From positions 30,544 to 94,543 of the forward strand of contig JBDRDJ010000007.1 of NCBI GenBank assembly GCA_043820815.1: a DNA stretch of 64,000 nt. The letters run 5' to 3'. The DNA comes from Candidatus Omnitrophota bacterium. GTDB lineage: Bacteria; Omnitrophota; Gorgyraeia; Duberdicusellales; 4484-171. The position numbers were made by a program, and so were the translations under genes. The notes under the pieces were generated by a model. That model had not been told where the DNA came from. It ran no database searches and was given only the letters and a program-made list of their open reading frames with translations. Shown here in pieces: positions 14,005 to 60,007 of the stretch (position 1 is its first letter; each line of letters begins with the position of its first letter).

Positions 14005-15240
14005 TTAAGGCTTTTCTACGGCAAGCGCAACGTATATACCGCCTCTGCCTTTAGCAAGAATCAAGGCTTTTTTAATCTCCCGGTTGCGGCAGGTATTTGG
14101 CGTATAATCTAAATCACAATACGGGTCGCTAACTTCATAATTGATTGTGGGTAAAACCGTGCTGTATTTCATAGACAATAATGTCGCCACCAAATCAAGT
14201 GCGGTTTGGGCGCCAAGAAGATTTCCAAACATGCTTTTAGGAGCGCTAAGGGAAATATTCTTTGTTAAAGGACCGAATACATTCTTTATTCCTTGAGTTT
14301 CAATATAGTCGCCCATTTCGGTTGCCTCTGCGTCCAAACAAATATAATCTACATCTTTTTTGTCCCAGCCCGCATCCTTTAAACACTCTATAATTGCATA
14401 TTCAAGGCTCTGGGAATCAGGGCTGCATCTTGAATAATGATAACCATCGCTGGCAAAACCTACGCCTTTTATGAAACCGTATGGTTTTACTCCTCTTTTC
14501 TCTGCATGAGATTCTCTCTCTAAAGTAACCATTGCCGCTCCCTCTCCCAAAACAAAGCCATCCCTGTATAAATCATAAGGCCTGTAGGCTGATTTAGGAG
14601 TCAGGTTCTTCTTTGAGAGGCCTCCGCATGTGTTAGCGCATAAAAGAGCGTATGGTGTAATCGGTGCCTCCATTCCTCCTGCCAGCACATAATCGTTTTT
14701 ACCGTCTTTGATAATTTTTGAACCATACCAAAGAGAAAGAGCCGACGAGGCACGGTCGGCTACTATAGTCTTACTGTAGCCTTTAAAACCGTAATATATT
14801 GTCACCTGGCCTTGAGGCGCAGCGGGAAACCATGCCGAAGCCATATAGGGCGAAATACCCTCTCTTCCTTCGATATACATATCTCTTAACTCTGTTTCCG
14901 CAAACAGCCAGCCGCCCAGGGCATTACCTGTAAATACTCCCACACGGTTCTTATCGATATTATTCTGGTCGATATTCGCGTCTTTTAACGCCTGTTCGCT
15001 TGCCACAAGCGCCATATGAGAAAAAACATCGATTTTCTTAACGAGCCTTCCCGAAAGGTGGGTATAATGGTCCAACTCATGGACATGGCCTGCGATACGG
15101 GAGGGATAAAGCGAAGAATCAAAACGCGTAATCTCATCGATAAAAGAAATCCCTCTTTTTAAATTTGCCCAGAACGTTTCCTTTTTTAAACCGCAGGGCG
15201 AAACCACGCCCACGCCTGTTATTGCCACTCTCTCACTCAT
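14005..15240 (-). CDS. Ketosynthase-beta / chain-length-factor-like protein (KS fold without the catalytic triad)
   Basis: KS-family fold (AITGVGVVSP..). At the active-site position it has VADRASSALS, with no Cys. The His motifs are replaced (LDAEATEMGD; KSMFGNLLGA, where His is Asn). Start chosen at MSERVAITG after an AGGAG. Confidence 0.75.
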   Translation of the reverse strand: MSERVAITGVGVVSPCGLKKETFWANLKRGISFIDEITRFDSSLYPSRIAGHVHELDHYTHLSGRLVKKIDVFSHMALVASEQALKDANIDQNNIDKNRVGVFTGNALGGWLFAETELRDMYIEGREGISPYMASAWFPAAPQGQVTIYYGFKGYSKTIVADRASSALSLWYGSKIIKDGKNDYVLAGGMEAPITPYALLCANTCGGLSKKNLTPKSAYRPYDLYRDGFVLGEGAAMVTLERESHAEKRGVKPYGFIKGVGFASDGYHYSRCSPDSQSLEYAIIECLKDAGWDKKDVDYICLDAEATEMGDYIETQGIKNVFGPLTKNISLSAPKSMFGNLLGAQTALDLVATLLSMKYSTVLPTINYEVSDPYCDLDYTPNTCRNREIKKALILAKGRGGIYVALAVEKP

Positions 15241-27002: not shown

Positions 27003-27043
27003 AGATTTATTCTCTTATTATTCGCATATATTATCTCGTTTTT

Positions 27044-27153
27044 AATGACGAAGCCAGAATGACTAATGAAGAATTAATGACTAAATGTGTAAATGTCGAA
27101 ATCACTTCGGCATTTGTCATTCTTAATTAATTAGTCATTCCTCATTCGTCATT
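27044..27153. repeat. 110-bp palindromic repeat element, copy 1 (MITE/REP-like)
   Basis: Bounded by perfect 9-bp inverted termini AATGACGAA / TTCGTCATT. The arms are rich in AATGAC/GTCATT hexamers and a TTAATTAA core. It is the same length as the copy at 34551-34660, with arms about 85-90% identical. Confidence 0.75.
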
Positions 27154-27159
27154 AGTCAT

Positions 27160-27657
27160 TTATCTATATACCATAAGGTTTTTTAGGGGTTTGCGTTTTC
27201 CGGATTTTGATATTTGTGCAGGTTTACCCAAAGCAATAACCGCCTCGAGCTCTAAGTTTCTAGGTGTTTTTAGCAATTTATAAATTTCCTTTCTCTTATT
27301 TAGTATTTCACCCAGCCAGCAAGCACCTAATCCTTTGGAATGAATAACTAAAAGTATATTTTGAATACACGCCCCTATTGCCAAAAGGTCCTTTTCGCAG
27401 TTATACGAAGTTTCTTTATTAAGGAAGATAAGAATTGTCTTATTACAATCTTTAACGATATGAGAATAATGTGTGTAACCAGCCAAAGAATCCTTTTGTT
27501 CTTCCCCAAGAACCATAAACTGCCATGGCTGATTATTGAGCCCTGAAGGCGCCCATCTTCCCGCTTCTAAAATATCGTTAATATCGGAATCTGAAACGCT
27601 ATCTTTCTTAAATTTCCTAACCGACCTTCGCTCTTTTATTAATTGTAATAAATCCAT
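27160..27657 (-). CDS. Nitroreductase family protein
   Basis: MDLLQLIKERRSVRKF is a typical nitroreductase N-terminus, followed by RWAPSGLNNQPW. The ORF-track extension to 27750 overlaps era and the heptamer repeat, so I reject it. Confidence 0.8.
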   Translation of the reverse strand: MDLLQLIKERRSVRKFKKDSVSDSDINDILEAGRWAPSGLNNQPWQFMVLGEEQKDSLAGYTHYSHIVKDCNKTILIFLNKETSYNCEKDLLAIGACIQNILLVIHSKGLGACWLGEILNKRKEIYKLLKTPRNLELEAVIALGKPAQISKSGKRKPLKNLMVYR

Positions 27658-34510: not shown

Positions 34511-34550
34511 ATTTACCCCCTTGATTTATATTAGTTAAGTTACGGATTTT

Positions 34551-34660
34551 AATGACGAAACCAGAATGTCGAGTGACGAATTAATGATTAAACGGGAAAA
34601 GAAGAATTTATTTCGACATTGGGTCATTCTTAATTAATTCGTCATTACTCATTCGTCATT
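34551..34660. repeat. 110-bp palindromic repeat element, copy 2
   Basis: Same termini (AATGACGAA / TTCGTCATT), same 110-bp length and same orientation as 27044-27153. The central ~25 bp have diverged. Confidence 0.75.
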
Positions 34661-34732
34661 AGACATTATAACACATATTCTATTGTAAATAATAAGGCAG
34701 GTATTGTAAAGGAAATTTCGTAAAGGCCAAGT

Positions 34733-39224: not shown

Positions 39225-42200
39225 TTAATCTTTAGTGTATTCTTGAATCGACCTTACCGTCATGCCGCTTTCTTTAACCGCCTCCATTCCGTTTACTGCT
39301 GCCTGAGCTCCTTGTACTGTTGTAATGCATGGCACACCGTACATAGTAGCCATGCTTCGTATTGCCTTCATGTCCGACTGGCCCTTTTTACCCGATGGTG
39401 TATTAATAATTAGGTGAAGGTTTGAGGCTTTAAGGTATTCTAAAATATTTTTTCCTTTTTCTCCGATTTTAACAACCAGTTCGGAAGATATATTGTTTGA
39501 GGCAAGGGCTTTATTCGTGCCTCTGGTTGCAATTAATTTAAACCCCATATCGTAAAGTTTTTTTGCGATAAACACAATGTTCCTCTTATCGTCGTTTTTA
39601 ACGCTTATAAAAATATTACCTTCTTTAGGCAAACTTTGGCCTGCGGCAACTTGCGATTTAAAAAAAGCCTCTCCAAAATTGCGGCCAATGCCCATAACCT
39701 CGCCGGTTGATTTCATCTCAGGGCCTAAGATAATATCGACTCCCGAAAACCTTGAGAAAGGTAAAACTGATTCTTTTACTGCAACATGCTTAGGCATAGA
39801 CTCTTTTAATAACCCTGCCTCGGAAAGCGTTTTGCCTGCCATAACTTTTGCCGCTATCTTTGCTAAAGGAACACCCGTTGTTTTACTCACAAAGGGAACT
39901 GTGCGCGAGGCGCGGGGATTTACTTCAAGCACATATACCACATCTTTCTTAACGGCGAACTGGATATTAATAAGGCCTTTGACTTCTAATTCTTTTGAAA
40001 GCACTAATGTCTTTTTGCGTATGGCGTCAATAATCTCGTCGCTTAATGTATGGGGGGGAAGAACGCAAGCCGAATCTCCCGAATGCACTCCTGCTTCCTC
40101 AACGTGCTCCATAATGCCTGCGATAATTGTATCTTTTCCGTCGGAAATTGCATCAACGTCAACCTCAACCGCATCTTCCAAAAATTTATCAATAAGCACG
40201 GGGTGCTCGCTCGATACCTCCTGCGCGGCATCCATAAATTCATCCAAAGAATTATCATCGTAAACTATTCTCATTGCCCTTCCGCCTAAAACATAAGACG
40301 GCCTGACCAAAACCGGATATCCGATTCTTTTTGCGATTTTCTTTGCTTCTTTGCGTGAATTAGCCGACCCGTTCGGCGGCTGATCAATTTTCAGCTTCTT
40401 TATAAGGCGTGCAAACTTCTCTCTGTCTTCTGCCCGGTCAATTGAATCAACTGAAGTCCCGATAATCGGGACACCTGAATTTTTAAGCCTTTTTGCTAAA
40501 TTAAGCGGGGTCTGGCCTCCGAATTGGACTATTACGCCGTTTGGCTTTTCTTTATCGACGATGTTCATCACATCTTCAAAAGTAAGCGGCTCAAAATACA
40601 GCTTATCAGAAGTATCGTAATCGGTCGATACTGTTTCCGGATTTGAATTAACCATAATGGTCTCAAAACCTATTTCCTTTAAAGCAAAGGAAGCATGGCA
40701 GCAGCAGTAATCAAATTCAATACCCTGGCCTATTCTGTTAGGGCCGCCGCCTAAAATCATGATTTTCTTTTTATCCGATACCCGCGACTCATCTTCGGTT
40801 TCATAGGTCGAATAATAATAAGGCGTGTAAGCTTCAAACTCTGCCGCGCAGGTATCAACAAGTTTATAAGTTGCCTCCATTCCCTTTTCTTTTCTTAATC
40901 TTCTTATCTCCTCTTCATCTTTACCGGTTAAATCAGCAATTTGCTTATCGCTGAATCCGTATTGTTTAGCGCGCAGCAGCGATTCGTCTGACATCTGATC
41001 TTTCGATATTTGATTTTCGAGTTCAACAATTTGTAAAATATTATCCAGAAACCAGGAGTCTATGCCGGTAAGATTATATATTTTTTCGATTGAATAACCT
41101 TTCTGAAAAGCATATTTAATGTAGAATATCCTTGAAGCATTTGGCTCTCTTAACCTGAGTTCTATTTTTTCATCAGAAATCTCTTTATAATCCAATTTAT
41201 TATCTAAACCATTGTGGCCGATTTCAAGGCCGCGCAAACCCTTTTGCAAGGCTTCTTTAAACGTGCGGCCTATGGCCATGGTTTCACCCACTGATTTCAT
41301 AGAAATTCCCAGAATGTCTTTTGCTTCAGGAAATTTCTCAAAGGTAAAGCGCGGTATTTTTACCACACAATAATCTATGGCCGGTTCAAAAGATGCCGGT
41401 GTCTCTTTAGTGATATCGTTTTGTATCTCGTCGAGCGTATAACCTACCGCGAGTTTTGCGGCAAATTTAGCGATGGGAAAACCGGTTGCTTTTGAGGCAA
41501 GAGCGGAAGAACGGGAAACACGCGGGTTCATCTCAATAACAACCATTCTTCCTGTTTTAGGGTCCACGGCAAACTGTATATTAGAGCCTCCGGTTTCAAC
41601 CCCTATTTCGCGTATAATAGCGGTGGCGGCATCGCGCATTTTCTGATACTCAATATCAGTCAGTGTCTGGGCAGGGGCAACTGTAATCGAATCTCCGGTA
41701 TGAATCCCCATGGGATCAAGATTTTCAATGGAACAGACAATAACCACGTTATCTTTTTTGTCCCGCATCACTTCAAGCTCGTATTCTTTCCATCCGATAA
41801 CCGATTCCTCAACGAGAATCTCGGAAATCATGCTGTTTTTTAAACCTAAATCGGCTACTTTCTCAAACTCTTCTTCTGTGGCAACAATCCCTCCGCCGGT
41901 TCCTCCGAGCGTGAAACTTGAACGGACAATTAAAGGTAAACCTATTTCTTTCATGGCGCAGCGCGCCTCATCCATATTATATGCAAGGGCGCTTTTAGGC
42001 AAATCAAGGCCTATTTTCTGCATTGCTTTCTTAAAGTCTTTCCTGTCTTCTGCTTTTTTTATAGTCTGGTAATTTGCGCCTAACATGCGCACGCCGTGTT
42101 TATCCAATATTCCCATCTCATGAGCCTTCATTGCCGTATTTAAGCCGGTCTGGCCGCCCAGAGTGGGCAGAATTGCATCCGGCTTTTCTTTCTCTATGAT

Positions 42201-42428
42201 TTTATCCAAAACTTCCGGAGTTATAGGCTCGATGTATGTGCTGTCTGCGATTTCAGGGTCAGTCATAATCGTTGCGGGATTGGAATTTACAAGAATTACC
42301 CTGTAGCCTTCCTCTTTTAAGGCTTTGCAGGCCTGGGTGCCGGAATAATCAAATTCGCAGGCCTGGCTAATAACAATTGGGCCGGAGCCGATTATTAATA
42401 TACTTTTTATGTCTGTTCTTTTAGGCAT
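39225..42428 (-). CDS. carB: Carbamoyl-phosphate synthase large subunit (copy 1, coupled to carA)
   Basis: 1067 aa with duplicated ATP-grasp halves and a C-terminal MGS-like domain. The start overlaps the carA stop. Confidence 0.95.
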
Positions 42429-43533
42429 TTTTTTTCATAAGGTTAATAAATTCGCCAAAAAGATAGCGGGCGTCGTGGGGCCCTGGTGCTGATTCCGGGT
42501 GAAACTGCACGGAGAATATTGGTAATTTTTTATGCCGGATTCCTTCTAATGTCTGGTCGTTTAGATTTACATGAGTAATTTCAAAGTCATCTTTGGGCAA
42601 AGAATCCATATCTACGCAAAACCCATGATTCTGAGAAGTGATTGAAACCTTATTTGTATTCAAATCCTTAACAGGGTGATTTGCTCCGTGGTGGCCGAAT
42701 TTAAGCTTGTAAGTCTTTCCGCCTAAAGCAAGGCCGAGTATCTGGTGGCCAAGGCATATACCCATAATGGCAAATGGCAAATGGCTAATGGCTAATGGTT
42801 TAATTAATTCCTTAACGGTTTCAATTGCACAGGTTACAGCGGCGGGGTCGCCGGGGCCATTTGATAAAAGAATTCCATCAGGATTCAGCCCTAATATTTC
42901 TTTAGCGCTTGTTTTTACAGGAACTACGGTTACATGACAGTTAAGACGTGAGAGTTCTCTTAAAATGTTTAGTTTAACCCCGCAATCAAGCACTACAACT
43001 TTATGATCACCTTTATCATTATAATTGTATGGTTTATCTATAGTAACTTCTTTAACCAAATCCACGCCCAGAAGGCCTTTAGAGTTACGGACTTGCTCAA
43101 TTAAAGCTTTATCATCAACATCGTCTGTTGAGATTGCTGCTTTCATAGCCCCCTGCAAGCGAATTCGTCTTGTAAGGGCCCGGGTATCAATGCCTTCAAT
43201 TCCTACTATATTATTCTCTTTAAGGTATTCTCCCAACCCCTTCTTAGAACGCCAGTTACTGGCGATGCGGCTTGCTTCTTTTACAACAAACCCTTCTAAG
43301 AAAAGCTTTCTCGATTCAACGTCTTCGGGGTTTACTCCGTAGTTTCCGATTAAAGGGTAGGTCATAGTTACAATCTGGCCTTTATAGGAAGGGTCAGTTA
43401 GAATCTCCTGATAACCGGCCATGCTGGTATTAAATATTACTTCGCCGAAGCTTATCCCTTCTGCGCCAAAGCTTAAACCTTTAAACACAGCTCCATCCTC
43501 AAGAACTAATTTTGCTCGTTTAATTTTATCCAT
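42421..43533 (-). CDS. carA: Carbamoyl-phosphate synthase small (glutaminase) subunit
   Basis: 370 aa. GICLGHQ catalytic Cys, [11 protein letters not shown], and FHPE. Confidence 0.93.
42766..42800. repeat. Heptanucleotide tandem repeat AATGGC(A/T) x5 inside carA, translated in frame
   Basis: AATGGCA AATGGCA AATGGCT AATGGCT AATGGTT. On the coding strand this encodes [12 protein letters not shown], ending 10 nt upstream of the catalytic Cys codon (42754-42756). Confidence 0.85.
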
Positions 43534-43568
43534 AAATACAGGCGGGTTAAGAAGCCTTAAAAATGAGT

Positions 43569-43649
43569 AAAGCGCCCCCTCTACTTACAATGTAGTAGAA
43601 AAGACGCCTTTGTCATCAATGACTATACCAGAAAACACCCTTCTGTCAA
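43569..43649 (-). promoter_or_regulatory. Predicted promoter plus terminator-like leader hairpin upstream of carA
   Basis: Minus strand: TTGACA (43649-43644), a 16-nt spacer, TATAGT (43627-43622). The following RNA is AAGGCGUCUUUUCUACUACAUUGUAAGUAGAGGGGGCGCUUUACUCAUUUUUAAGG (hairpin 43610-43569). It could equally be the terminator of the upstream DUF1846 gene. Confidence 0.4.
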
Positions 43650-48200: not shown

Positions 48201-48436
48201 TCAATTATTTTCTCAACGCTCTCGGGAGTCAGCGGCTCAATATAAGTTTTATCGGCCGTTGAGGGATCGGTCATAATGGTTGCGGGGTTAGAATTAACAA
48301 GTACTATTTCATACCCTTCTTCCCTAAGAGCCTTACAGGCCTGCGTGCCTGAGTAATCAAACTCACAAGCCTGGCCAATTATGATTGGCCCTGAACCGAT
48401 AATCAAAATTTTGTGAATATCTTCTCTTCTTGGCAT
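45218..48436 (-). CDS. carB: Carbamoyl-phosphate synthase large subunit paralog (copy 2, no adjacent carA)
   Basis: ~1072 aa, full-length (both ATP-grasp halves plus an MGS-like domain). Roughly 60% identical to copy 1 by eye. Start chosen at [17 protein letters not shown] after a GGGAGG. Confidence 0.9.
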   Translation of the reverse strand: MPRREDIHKILIIGSGPIIIGQACEFDYSGTQACKALREEGYEIVLVNSNPATIMTDPSTADKTYIEPLTPESVEKIIEKERPDALLPNLGGQTGLNLASSLYKSGVLDKYGVEVIGVKADAIERGEDRLVFKEAMKKLDIPIARSEISHSVEEAEAIAERIKYPVVLRPAYTLGGTGGGIAYNVEELRIIATRGLAASIVNQVLVEEAVIGWEELELEVVRDAKNQKITVCFIENIDAMGVHTGDSFCCAPMLTVPKKLQEKMQKLSYKIVEAIGVTGGTNIQFAHNPEDDRMVVIEINPRTSRSSALASKATGFPIARISTKLAAGLTMDEMPYWRKGTLEKYEPWGDYVVIKFARWAFEKFPKAKDMLGTQMRAVGEVMSIGKTFKEAFQKSIRSLEIKRYGLGVPKFKALTDFELKSRLSYPSSERIFLMYEALRRGAAVDELYKVTYIGRWFISEMKELVDFEEEIIKYPWDKLPTEKLIKAKEWGFSDKYLAEVFKTEEPQVREKRKKLKKINCYDIVPVSGVENASYYYSTYIGKDKVEVSKNKKIMILGGGPNRIGQGIEFDYTCVHAAFALRDEGYESIMVNCNPETVSTDYDTSNKLYFEPLTVEDVLSIYEKEKPQGVIVQFGGQTPLNIAQELKDNGVKILGTSPESIRLAEDREYFRKRMIDIDILQPESSTARSLEEAVKIANKIGYPLIVRPSFVLGGRGMEIVYDEKALQKYAKEAIQVSPEYPMLIDRFLEQAVEAEVDALCDGADVFVAGVMEHIELAGVHSGDSACAIPTHTIKKEHLDTIIDYTKRIAKELKVVGLINIQYAICDNKVYILEANPRASRTVPLVSKVTGIPIARVATKLMLGKKIKDFPELVAGELPYVGVKEAVFPFNMFPEVDPLLGPEMRATGEVMGMAETFGLAFYKAQEAAGLKLPLEGNVLLTVTDKDKKHVLAIAQRIKKLGFKIYATEGTCDFLSQHGIPCEYIKKLHEGRPNIVDAIKNKEIHLVINTPVGSSSKYDDSYIRMMAIQQKVPYITSIAAAQASVEGIEEVKKSKITPTSLQDYYKDRLRTSKRH

Positions 48437-48506
48437 AAAACCTCCCTGAGCACGCGGCTTATGGAGCAAATGAAATGAGCGGACATAAGTCATGCCCTCA
48501 AACAAA

Positions 48507-48616
48507 AACAGCGCCCCCTTGCAATGTTATCGCAAAAAGGCGCTGTTAATACAATCTATGTGCATAATTACTCAATCAATTTTGTTGATTATCCGATATT
48601 TTGGCAGATTAGTCAA
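48507..48616 (-). promoter_or_regulatory. Predicted promoter plus terminator-like leader hairpin upstream of carB copy 2
   Basis: Minus strand: TTGACT (48616-48611), a 17-nt spacer, GATAAT (48593-48588). The following RNA is AACAGCGCCUUUUUGCGAUAACAUUGCAAGGGGGCGCUGUUUUUGUUUGAG, with a 9-bp outer stem (48547-48539 / 48515-48507) and a U-tract. Confidence 0.4.
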
Positions 48617-48746
48617 GCATAAAAAGAAAGGAAACTGGAAAACCCCTGTTATGCTTGAAAAAGACAAACGCATAAACAGGGCATTAATAAACCGGTAAAC
48701 AGCTAGGGCAGTTAAAAAGGGTTGATGGCGGATATGGAATACGGTT

Positions 48747-50132: not shown

Positions 50133-52350
<2,218 letters not shown>

Positions 52351-52410: not shown

Positions 52411-52526
52411 AGGACAAAGGCGGCTTAAAACGCCCCTAAATAAAAAAATCTTCCCTTTTTGGGGGAAGAACTTCTTTGTCCTCTCCTAAGACAAGTAATT
52501 ATATAGATTTTCTAAAAACGAGTCAA
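52411..52526 (-). promoter_or_regulatory. Sigma70-like promoter and structured leader with an intrinsic-terminator-like hairpin upstream of the nfnA-nfnB-gdhA array
   Basis: Minus strand: TTGACT (52526-52521), a 17-nt spacer, TATAAT (52503-52498). The hairpin is CUUCCC-ccaaaaa-GGGAAG (52468-52450), followed by A + U7 (52449-52442). A 9-bp long-range helix, AGGACAAAG (52482-52474) with CUUUGUCCU (52419-52411), encloses it. Confidence 0.45.
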
Positions 52527-55006: not shown

Positions 55007-55059
55007 AGTAATTTTATTTTACTCGGCAGGGGTTGGTATGACAAGCTATTTCTTTTTAG

Positions 55060-55099
55060 CACGAATTTCCACAAATTATAGACGAATTACCACGAATAA
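55060..55099. repeat. 40-bp exact repeat, copy A (contains a TATAAT box on the minus strand)
   Basis: CACGAATTTCCACAAATTATAGACGAATTACCACGAATAA is identical to 59951-59990. Confidence 0.9.
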
Positions 55100-55274
55100 A
55101 AGTTGACCCGAATGATTATTTTATCGGAAGTCATATGGCAACATAGCATTGTTTAGTCGTGGTCTTGAAAAATTTGGCGGGAATTTTTTAAGAGAAGAAA
55201 TCGGTTTTTACATAGAAGAATTAAACTTTTGTGCTTTTATGAATGTTGTATAATGTTTCTTATTTTCCTTAACC

Positions 55275-58496: not shown

Positions 58497-59948
58497 CTAC
58501 AAAAACGGCAGGCTGCTTTCTTCCATAAGGTAGGTGTCGATATGATAAGCGGCGCGGCGGCCTTCGGCAATTGCCCAAACAACAAGGGATTGGCCGCGCC
58601 GGCAGTCTCCGGCGCTGAATATGCCTTTTTTTGATGTCATGTAGCCCTGATTGGTTTTTATATTTCCTCTCTCATCCAGCTCTAAACCCAAATCAGAAAT
58701 TAATCCTGATTTTTCCGGGCCGAGAAATCCTACTGCAAGAATTACTAAATCTGCTTCTATCTCAAACTCTGAGCCAGGAATTTCTTTCATAACGGGGCAG
58801 GTTTTATTTTTTGCCGGATAAACAAATTCTACTTTAACACAAGAAAGCTTTTTAACACAGCCTTGCTCGCCTATAAACTTTTTTGTAAGGACTGCCCAAC
58901 GGCGCAAGACTCCTTCCTGGTGGCTGCTGGTTGTTTTAAGGAGCAAAGGATATAACGGCCAGGGTTGATGGCTGGCCCTGCATTCAGGAGGCTGCGATAA
59001 GACTTCGATTTGAACAACACAAGATGCCCCCTGCCGGTTAGCGGTCCCCACACAGTCGCTTCCCGTATCCCCTCCTCCTATTACGACAACTTTTTTTCCT
59101 TTAGCCTCGATTACCTCTTCGCCGCAAATATCTTCGCCGCTAACCTTACGGTTGTTCTGGGTTAGATAGTCCATGGCAAAGTGAATGCCTTTTAAATCCC
59201 GGCCTTCAATTTTTAAATCTCTTGGCGTGCGGGAGCCGCTGGCAATTACAATTGCATCGAATTCTTTTTCCAAATCTTGATATTTAATATTTTCTCCTAC
59301 GCCGGCTTGGCACTTAAATTCAACGCCTTCTTGCTGTAATAAGCTGATGCGCCTTTCGATAATTTCTTTTTCGAGTTTAAAGTCAGGTATTCCATAGCGC
59401 AAAATACCCCCTGGCTTTTTATCTTTTTCAAAAACAACCACCCTGTGGCCGGCTTTATTGAGCTGGCCTGCCGCAGAAAGCCCTGCCGGGCCGGAGCCGG
59501 CAACCGCGACTTTCTTTCCTGTTCTTACGCTCGGCGCAAGGGGCTTAATCAGACCCCTGCTAAAAGCATATTCAATGGCTGATAATTCGTTTTCTCTTAT
59601 GGTAACAGGGTCGTCGTTTATCCCTAAAACACAGCCATATTCGCAAAGCCCGGGGCAAACTCTACCGGTTATCTCGGGCAGATTATTTGTTGCCTCAAGC
59701 AAAGAAAGCGCTTTTTTCCATTGGCCATTCATCACCGAATCATTCCACTCAGGAATATAGTTTCCAACCGGGCAGGCCCAGTGGCAGAAAGGGACTCCGC
59801 AATCCATACAGCGCGAAGCCTGTTGTTTTGAATCTCCCTCTTGCCTTGGCAGGCAGACATCTCTATAATCTGCCGCGCGTTCGCACACAGGGCGATACTC
59901 TTCGCTTTTGCGCTTAATTTTCAGGAATGCTTTTATGTCTTTATTCAT
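58497..59948 (-). CDS. gltD: Glutamate synthase (NADPH) small subunit
   Basis: ~483 aa. [10 protein letters not shown] Fe-S region, [11 protein letters not shown] and [13 protein letters not shown] dinucleotide folds. ATG chosen at 59948 (MNKDIKAF); the track's GTG at 59963 falls inside the 40-bp repeat. Confidence 0.9.
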
Positions 59949-59950
59949 AA

Positions 59951-59990
59951 CACGAATTTCCACAAATTATAGACGAATTACCACGAATAA
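59951..59990. repeat. 40-bp exact repeat, copy B (between the gltB stop and the gltD start)
   Basis: Identical to 55060-55099. Confidence 0.9.
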
Positions 59991-60007
59991 TATTTTTATA
60001 ACATGTA

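Follow-up and report, generated by a model that had tools for sequence, protein, structure and literature searches.

We report here on the leader of the carbamoyl-phosphate synthetase genes carA-carB1 in a 64-kb stretch of DNA (the window) from a metagenome-assembled genome of Candidatus Omnitrophota. The hairpin that separates a predicted promoter from carA (hairpin B, in the leader called copy B) is a real transcription terminator, and it probably serves as the terminator in an ANTAR-type antitermination switch that controls entry into carA-carB1. The leader most likely belongs to a nitrogen-assimilation regulon of the Omnitrophota, and is neither a new riboswitch nor a pyrimidine- or arginine-specific attenuator. 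A comparable leader, copy A, with its hairpin A, precedes the other carB gene of the window, carB2 (Table 1).

The original prediction, made from the sequence alone, placed a promoter (TTGACA-16-TATAGT) and a hairpin between the DUF1846 gene and carA, and that description is accurate. The candidate promoter matches 11 of the 12 consensus positions and has an extended -10; only four promoter-like sites in the whole window reach 11/12 in our promoter scan. Transcription is predicted to start near 43616. The 'UUUU' and 'GGG' blocks, which had been described as separate parts of hairpin B, pair as G-U and make its stem continuous over 17 bp (-21.7 kcal/mol). Owing to three to four G-U pairs, hairpin B is specific to the minus strand; these pairs become A-C mismatches on the other strand, and a reading of the hairpins as DNA-level operators was rejected on that ground. 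Both hairpins A and B show what is expected of an intrinsic terminator, a stable G+C-rich stem-loop followed by a U-tract. The distance from hairpin B to the ATG of carA is only 35 nt. The only match of the scan that could serve as an extra promoter between the two, TTAACC-16-TAAAAT (9/12), has its -10 inside the coding region and was discarded. Since no credible promoter fits in these 35 nt, every carA transcript must cross hairpin B.

What had been overlooked is a conserved hexaloop hairpin, which we call P2, at the 5' edge of hairpin B. The 5' arm of hairpin B begins with nine bases of this box (43610-43602), which come from its loop and 3' half. Folded alone, P2 is worth -1.9 kcal/mol, compared to -21.7 kcal/mol for the terminator. 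When P2 is enforced in the folding, the basal 10 bp of the terminator are lost, and what is left is a 7-bp apical hairpin about 20 nt away from the U-tract.

These features are those of the RNA targets of ANTAR proteins. According to Ramesh et al. (2012), such a target consists of short stems with hexanucleotide loops, each loop having an A in position 1 (A1) and a G in position 4 (G4), and the second stem-loop overlaps the terminator; the linker between the stem-loops is 5-12 nt in the eut leaders (PMC3369931). Walshe et al. (2022) have since set the minimal unit of binding at one hexaloop (PMC8934654). The systems used for comparison are the eut leaders with EutV (Enterococcus faecalis), the nasF leader with NasR and the ami leader with AmiR. 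Copy B has the hexanucleotide loop, A1 and G4, and the overlap of P2 with the 5' arm of the terminator. The original prediction could not assign the motif to a riboswitch class; what we observe agrees with the antiterminator target described for ANTAR proteins (PMC3369931).

The box is found again in related Omnitrophota loci, where a pattern search over all loci gives at least 17 distinct leader elements made of a box and a terminator. In each of them the hexaloop and the 3' half of the stem (AAAGRCGUYC) open the 5' arm of the terminator, whose 3' arm reads ...GAACGYCUUUUUU, and the overlap between P2 and the terminator is about 10 nt. G4 is present in 15 boxes out of 15; at position 1, 13 boxes have A and 2 have G. 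In several lineages, as a look-up of carA homologues shows, carA shares an operon with genes for a GAF-ANTAR protein and for a protein with a glutamate-synthase domain. This operon is preceded by a promoter and by as many as three terminators in tandem, all of which have a 14-nt box at the 5' edge (GGAC-AAAGGC-GUUC, GGAU-AAAGAC-GUCC and GAAC-AAUGGC-GUUC). Elements of the same kind precede other genes of nitrogen and glutamine metabolism, as listed in Table 1. A covariance model of the box (R1) was built from relatives only, with no sequence from the window and before loci L159-L161, which surround further GAF-ANTAR genes, were fetched; in these three loci it finds elements before glnA and before the GAF-ANTAR gene with E-values of 3e-4 to 0.01, all of them on terminators.

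In the relatives a second hairpin lies upstream of the box. This hairpin, P1, is typically GCAC-AAAGUUA-GUGC, with a loop of 6-7 nt that usually has A1 and G4, and it is joined to the box by a linker of 4-16 nt. Its stem shows compensatory changes at three pairs and is 94% paired, compared to 26-41% for slid controls; none of 500 shuffles reaches the observed percentage of pairing, number of cells changed on both sides or covariation score. The P2 stem is 98% paired in the relatives, with little covariation.

Two further features of these loci were noticed. A conserved GGTTACCAAA...GATTTTTTACTTTAYTA lies before the P1 of several elements (L159, 2060-2100 and 9550-9590; L160, 395-425), possibly as a promoter or DNA operator common to this regulon. 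In the GAF-ANTAR operons, a conserved small Cys-rich open reading frame of about 50 amino acids (...GLCSTCVNDEGCTFPRKFPVLQCEEF...) lies between the glutamate-synthase domain gene and carA (L154, 4849-5004; L158, 4850-5004; L159, 12750-12896).

The window contains a third leader of the same design, in the divergent intergenic region upstream of the PyrK-like gene. Its box is the top match of R1 in the window (17.4 bits, E 0.073). This leader is also the best match of the dual-hairpin model, R2, in the window (E 0.004), with a modelled P1 that spans a 34-nt insert across the promoter; we do not regard this P1 as credible. A broad pattern of the box has four matches in 128 kb (both strands of the window), two of which, in copy B and in the third leader, sit exactly on the 5' edge of a terminator. 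Those two terminators come after the two intergenic promoters of the minus strand that score 11/12. We roughly estimate the probability of this by chance to be about 2e-5.

These observations bear on an alternative in which hairpin B is a leaky intrinsic terminator of the carB2-DUF1846 unit that sets carA-carB1 at a fixed lower level, the promoter and the box being incidental. Hairpin B lies 48 nt after the stop codon of DUF1846, which is a normal position for a terminator, its interrupted U-tract suggests partial efficiency, the window contains no regulator gene, and the promoter matches of the scan, taken together, are no more frequent than in shuffles. On the contrary, the copy B promoter is one of the rare 11/12 sites and has an extended -10, the box occupies the same register on the terminators of the regulated-looking leaders of the relatives, and an equal design occurs at 52481, where no upstream gene is in need of termination. 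Hairpins A and B do resemble plain intrinsic terminators in their G+C-rich stem followed by a U-tract, hairpin A being a textbook example; they differ from them in that both come after a promoter and immediately ahead of essential biosynthetic genes, and hairpin B carries the overlapping hexaloop box. We consider it unlikely that hairpin B is a plain terminator. For annotation, strong hairpins inside this gene cluster are to be read as regulatory gates and not as operon ends.

The putative partner of the box is a GAF-ANTAR protein (Pfam PF03861), whose gene lies directly downstream of box elements in relatives: in seven loci, one to three copies of the box directly precede it. The protein is 83-100% identical over the top 120 clusters (P0121-P0240, each made at 90%), several of which are named Omnitrophica or Omnitrophota, whereas these lineages share only about 70% identity in the carA next to it. 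Homologues with an E-value below 1e-20 number 7716; among ten NCBI-sourced GAF-ANTAR homologues screened by accession, none comes from the assembly studied here. It is plausible that the regulator is also present in the genome studied here, as we assume from these relatives. No GAF-ANTAR protein had been characterized as of 2012 (PMC3369931), and in the open-access literature we found neither a characterized GAF-ANTAR protein nor an account of such a circuit in Omnitrophota.

Another hypothesis is that the box is read by a different RNA-binding factor, or is itself a small ligand-sensing RNA, and that its proximity to the GAF-ANTAR gene reflects co-regulation only. The binding of the box by an ANTAR protein is indeed deduced from sequence, the box (GRAC-AAAGRC-GUYC) exceeds the loose ANTAR consensus of the literature in length and conservation, and the versions in the window have a single hairpin. 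However, the relatives have every published feature of ANTAR targets that is open to computation, and the copies of the box directly before the GAF-ANTAR gene are what autoregulation predicts. Regarding a ligand-sensing RNA, a hairpin of 14 nt leaves no room for a ligand pocket, and it has no match in Rfam. We therefore see this hypothesis as quite improbable. Among the effectors that the original prediction had offered (pyrimidine, arginine or a protein), the protein is the most likely for copy B.

The mechanism that we favor, antitermination by an ANTAR protein, would operate as follows. The RNA made from the promoter at 43649-43622, or by read-through from DUF1846, would have two alternative folds. 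In the first one, the 17-bp terminator (43610-43569) forms and transcription would stop before carA. In the second one, the weak hexaloop hairpin (43615-43602) would form, taking nine bases from the 5' arm of the terminator. At only -1.9 kcal/mol, P2 is too weak to prevail over the terminator unless a protein assists it. A GAF-ANTAR protein, once its GAF domain has sensed the right nitrogen state, may bind the A1/G4 hexaloop and hold P2 closed, which would prevent the terminator from forming and let transcription proceed into carA-carB1. Copy B would thus be one member of the nitrogen-assimilation regulon, and the leader at 52526-52442 a second clear member. The candidate P1 of copy B (43645-43629) overlaps the -35 and the spacer of the promoter, and could therefore exist only in RNA that reads through from DUF1846.

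Like the known ANTAR targets, these leaders have a hairpin with a short stem and an A1/G4 hexaloop whose 3' part is the 5' arm of the terminator, they precede genes of nitrogen metabolism and, in the relatives, they have a second upstream hairpin and an adjacent gene for an ANTAR-domain protein. They differ from the characterized systems in several respects: the sensor of the likely regulator is a GAF domain instead of a receiver, NIT or AmiR_N domain; the sequence of the box is more strongly conserved; the P1 loops of the relatives often have 7 nt; the two copies of the box in the window and that of L033 appear to consist of P2 only; and the genes include carbamoyl-phosphate synthetase, purF, guaA and gdhA. 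ANTAR targets mostly lie before genes of nitrogen metabolism, including those for the synthesis of glutamate, glutamine and arginine (PMC3369931). No Omnitrophota have been cultured, and hardly anything has been described of how they regulate their genes. In this phylum the leaders offer a concrete circuit, whose parts are the strongly conserved GAF-ANTAR protein, the well-defined 14-nt box on the terminators and a coherent regulon of enzymes that assimilate nitrogen or use glutamine. GAF-ANTAR is a common architecture, and the paired protein and RNA sequences open the ligand of the GAF domain, and the question of single- versus dual-hexaloop antitermination, to study in vitro, with no need for a culture of the organism.

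The genes that carry the box in relatives (glnA, gltB, gdhA, purF, guaA-like genes, carA, carB2 and the GAF-ANTAR gene itself) point to general nitrogen or glutamine status as the likely signal, rather than to a signal specific to pyrimidines or arginine.

Attenuation specific to pyrimidines or arginine was also considered, as the carbamoyl-phosphate synthetase genes of Bacillus and of enterics are under such control, by PyrR, by UTP-sensitive pausing with a leader peptide, or by reiterative transcription. In Bacillus subtilis, the pyr operon, which includes the pyrimidine-specific carbamoyl-phosphate synthetase, is under the control of PyrR attenuators. The leaders described here resemble the latter: ahead of carbamoyl-phosphate synthetase genes, in leaders or between cistrons, a protein would decide whether the RNA folds into a terminator or into another structure. 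In contrast to what we propose here, PyrR promotes termination, by stabilizing an anti-antiterminator, and it recognizes a UCCAGAGAGG-like loop, of which we found no site; it responds to UMP/UTP, while the genes concerned here speak for nitrogen status. A U-run is present in the 5' arm of both hairpins, and short open reading frames overlap both of them (MTKASFLLHCK-stop in B, MHIDCINSAFLR-stop in A). The latter are unlike each other and their frames differ relative to the shared sequence; we take them as chance, and leader-peptide attenuation was not retained. Neither was reiterative transcription of the pyrG type or of the carAB-P1 type, neither predicted start having a G-run or a T-run. A search of the two leaders against Rfam with E-values up to 10 returned only sub-threshold matches to unrelated families of microRNA, small nucleolar RNA and small RNA, and no PyrR site, in keeping with the absence of a PyrR box noted earlier; Rfam 15 gave no match at gathering score in the whole window, and nothing matched in 13 related loci. 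With a regulon that, in relatives, covers general nitrogen assimilation, a pyrimidine- or arginine-specific attenuator is highly improbable. Of the original proposal, attenuation thus stands in outline, as both hairpins are promoter-proximal terminators that any car transcript must cross; the recognition element and the likely signal are others than those put forward.

Regarding copy A, the predicted start precedes hairpin A by 34 nt, another 70 nt separate the hairpin from carB2, and the A-rich spacer of the carB2 promoter resembles, when compared by eye, that of the promoters of related leaders (L004, L005, L033). The P1-like hairpin upstream of hairpin A is similar to the P1 of the relatives. 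It had been considered that hairpin A could simply be the 3' end of gdhA. This is contradicted by a terminator-like hairpin at 48681-48639, upstream of the carB2 promoter, which the terminator scan missed owing to its large loop: since gdhA has its own terminator, hairpin A is a leader structure. In the alignment of A with B, AACAGCGCC of copy A stands at the place of the ACAAAGGCGUC of copy B. Hairpin A looks like a paralogous or degenerate relative of hairpin B whose P2 box is broken, and it would be either a constitutive leaky attenuator or under control of a kind not visible here. Palindromes resembling ARG boxes were sought by eye near the promoter of copy A, with no convincing match.

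The sequence between hairpin A and carB2 (48436-48505, minus strand) has ATGACTTATGTC...CTCCATAA in common with the carB2 leader of L012 (about 14090-14160); in the window this stretch is in frame with carB2, as a 19-codon extension from an upstream ATG. Other carB2 leaders (L007, 5260-5390; L047, 185-315) have a promoter, a hairpin CCCAUGAGAUUNUCAAUGGGA and then UUUUCG. Both also have an upstream open reading frame of 35 codons, of the same length and frame in the two loci, which runs from within the hairpin to a TAAGGAG immediately ahead of carB2; a leader-peptide design, distinct from the box family, is possible.

The similarity between the two hairpins was the basis of the original prediction, which proposed a common effector. 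In this line, the shared blocks (ACAUUGYAAG, GGGGGCGCU and a U-run paired to a G-run) would be a site for a lineage-specific factor or RNA controlling both carbamoyl-phosphate synthetase units. Exact copies of GGGGGCGCT and of ACATTGYAAG each occur twice in the window, only in hairpins A and B. The local alignment of A with B scores 33 and tops all of the 3974 comparisons of random windows (mean 14.7, sd 3.0); as the maximum of this null distribution is 30, the score is barely above it, and the similarity exceeds chance for a pre-specified pair but is not overwhelming. The blocks themselves do not behave as a recognition element: no copy was found near car genes in 151 related loci (1.96 Mb), even with mismatches allowed, and this includes the orthologous carB2 and carA leaders. 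The search of Rfam and of relatives that had been suggested for the motif hence yields neither a family nor a recurrence of the blocks. ACAUUG is indeed the loop of hairpin B, as the claim of a conserved loop requires, but it lies mostly in the 3' arm of hairpin A, and is structurally misplaced between the two. Nor are the two car loci unlinked, as had been stated: they belong to a single gene cluster, both on the minus strand, and 5 kb separate them. The similarity is explained by a common origin of the two terminators, and the genome has no close relative in which conservation could be assessed. That the blocks are the site of a lineage-specific factor is, in our opinion, very doubtful. A combination of the two ideas, in which P2-only switches belong to a phylum-wide GAF-ANTAR sensor that coordinates the enzymes consuming glutamine and ammonia, namely glutamine synthetase, glutamate synthase, glutamate dehydrogenase, carbamoyl-phosphate synthetase, PurF and GuaA, while ACAUUGYAAG and GGGGGCGCU provide a second, lineage-specific layer of control on both carbamoyl-phosphate synthetase units, also appears rather improbable.

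Several observations weigh against antitermination of carA-carB1 by an ANTAR protein. The E-values of R1 in the window (0.073 and 1.5) are marginal when taken alone; the second one is that of the copy B box, only the fourth best match in the window (12.4 bits), because its outermost pair, a U-U, is penalized. This leaves P2 of copy B with three standard pairs. The predicted -10 of copy B ends only 7 nt before P2, and although the dual-hairpin arrangement is present in relatives, R2 finds no canonical P1 for copy B. In the relatives, the covariation of P2 amounts to essentially one event. A tblastn search of the window reveals no ANTAR gene. Last, copy A has no intact P2 box (neither R1 nor R2 matches it), and the likeness of its loop and 3' arm to those of copy B is accounted for only via common descent.

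Table 1. Positions of the leader elements and genes of the window, and box elements in related loci
Feature	Position or locus	Strand	Remarks
Copy B, candidate sigma-70-like promoter TTGACA-N16-(TG)gTATAGT	43622..43649	-	Directly after the DUF1846 stop (43659)
Copy B, candidate upstream hairpin (P1?) CAGAA-GGGUGUU-UUCUG	43629..43645	-	Weak; in the minimum-free-energy fold of the read-through RNA
Copy B, P2 box UGAC-AAAGGC-GUCU	43602..43615	-	14 nt; stem of 3-4 bp, hexaloop with A1 and G4
Terminator hairpin B, loop ACAUUGUA	43569..43610	-	Continuous stem of 17 bp, -21.7 kcal/mol
Interrupted U-tract ACUCAUUUUU	43559..43568	-	3' of hairpin B; the stem itself ends with UUU
carB2 leader, candidate promoter TTGACT-N17-GATAAT	48588..48616	-	10/12 matches
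Copy A, P1-like hairpin AUGCA-CAUAGAU-UGUAU, or in another register GCAC-AUAGAUU-GUAU	48549..48565	-	In the minimum-free-energy fold
Terminator hairpin A and U-tract UUUUUGUUUG	48497..48547	-	Hairpin 48547-48507, 19 bp, -27.3 kcal/mol; clean U-tract
gdhA terminator-like hairpin CCCUGUUUAUGC...GCAUAACAGGGG and U-rich tail	48639..48681	-	Stem of about 11 bp and loop of 15 nt; precedes the carB2 promoter
Third leader	52442..52526	-	Promoter, P2 box, terminator, U7; ahead of the PyrK-like, GltD-like and gdhA genes
Third leader, candidate promoter TTGACT-17-TATAAT	52526-52498	-	11/12
Third leader, P2 box GGAC-AAAGAA-GUUC	52481-52468	-	Four pairs; A1 and G4 present
Third leader, terminator UCUUCCC-CCAAAAA-GGGAAGA, then U7	52469-52449	-	Overlap with the box of just 2 nt
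gltB	63940-60008	-	Gene call
gltD	59963-58497	-	Gene call; several other genes between it and the PyrK-like gene
PyrK-like gene	52350-51550	-	Gene call
GltD-like gene	51495-50133	-	Split over three frames
gdhA	50096-48747	-	Gene call
carB2	48436-45218	-	Downstream of hairpin A
DUF1846	45194-43659	-	Downstream of hairpin A, after carB2
carA	43533-42421	-	Gated by hairpin B
carB1	42428-39225	-	Gated by hairpin B, with carA (39225..43533)
purF	39154-37775	-	Gene call
pyrG	37905-36172	-	Gene call
Box element upstream of carB2	L004		Related locus
Box elements upstream of guaA-like genes	L004, L005		Related loci
Box element upstream of a PyrK-like gene	L005		Related locus
Box elements upstream of purF	L013, L033		Related loci; P2 only in L033
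Box variant GGGC-AAUGAU-GUCC on a carA leader terminator	L017		Read by eye
Box element upstream of gdhA	L152		Related locus
Box element upstream of glnA	L159		Related locus
Box elements upstream of GAF-ANTAR/gltB/carA operons	L154-L161		Up to three tandem copies

Every gene in this part of the window lies on the minus strand, and their order is that of a cluster of nitrogen-assimilating and glutamine-using enzymes. The source genome is without a close relative in any collection searched, the best non-self identities being 72% for carA, 79% for carB2 and 81% for DUF1846.

The carB2 gene belongs to a distinct clade of stand-alone carB genes; its identity is 53% to carB1 and 62-80% to the orthologues from other loci, and it never adjoins carA. 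The DUF1846 gene is repeatedly found adjacent to carB2 or within a few kb of it, in either order (L004, L005, L007, L009, L012, L017, L022, L029, L044, L084 and the window), and this repeated proximity suggests a functional link between DUF1846 and the CarB-like ATP-grasp enzyme.

The GltD-like gene (Fer4_20 and Pyr_redox_2 domains; 50133-51495, minus strand) consists of three open reading frames in different frames, 51495-50617, 50647-50462 and 50465-50133, which match successive parts of the Pyr_redox_2 profile; it is either a frameshifted pseudogene or the result of assembly errors. The gltB gene (63940-60008) begins midway in its GATase_2 domain.

Last, two pairs of intergenic repeats were observed in the window. 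The copies of the first pair, at 55049-55104 and 59940-59995, are 89% identical and include TTCGTGGTAATTCGTCTATAATTTGTGGAAATTCGTG; one of them lies between gltB and gltD. Those of the second pair, at 27040-27160 and 34547-34667, are 83-93% identical, contain AATGACNA-like short repeats and lie upstream of a tRNA methyltransferase gene and of a gene for an AsnC-family regulator. Both pairs are possible shared operator or promoter modules.

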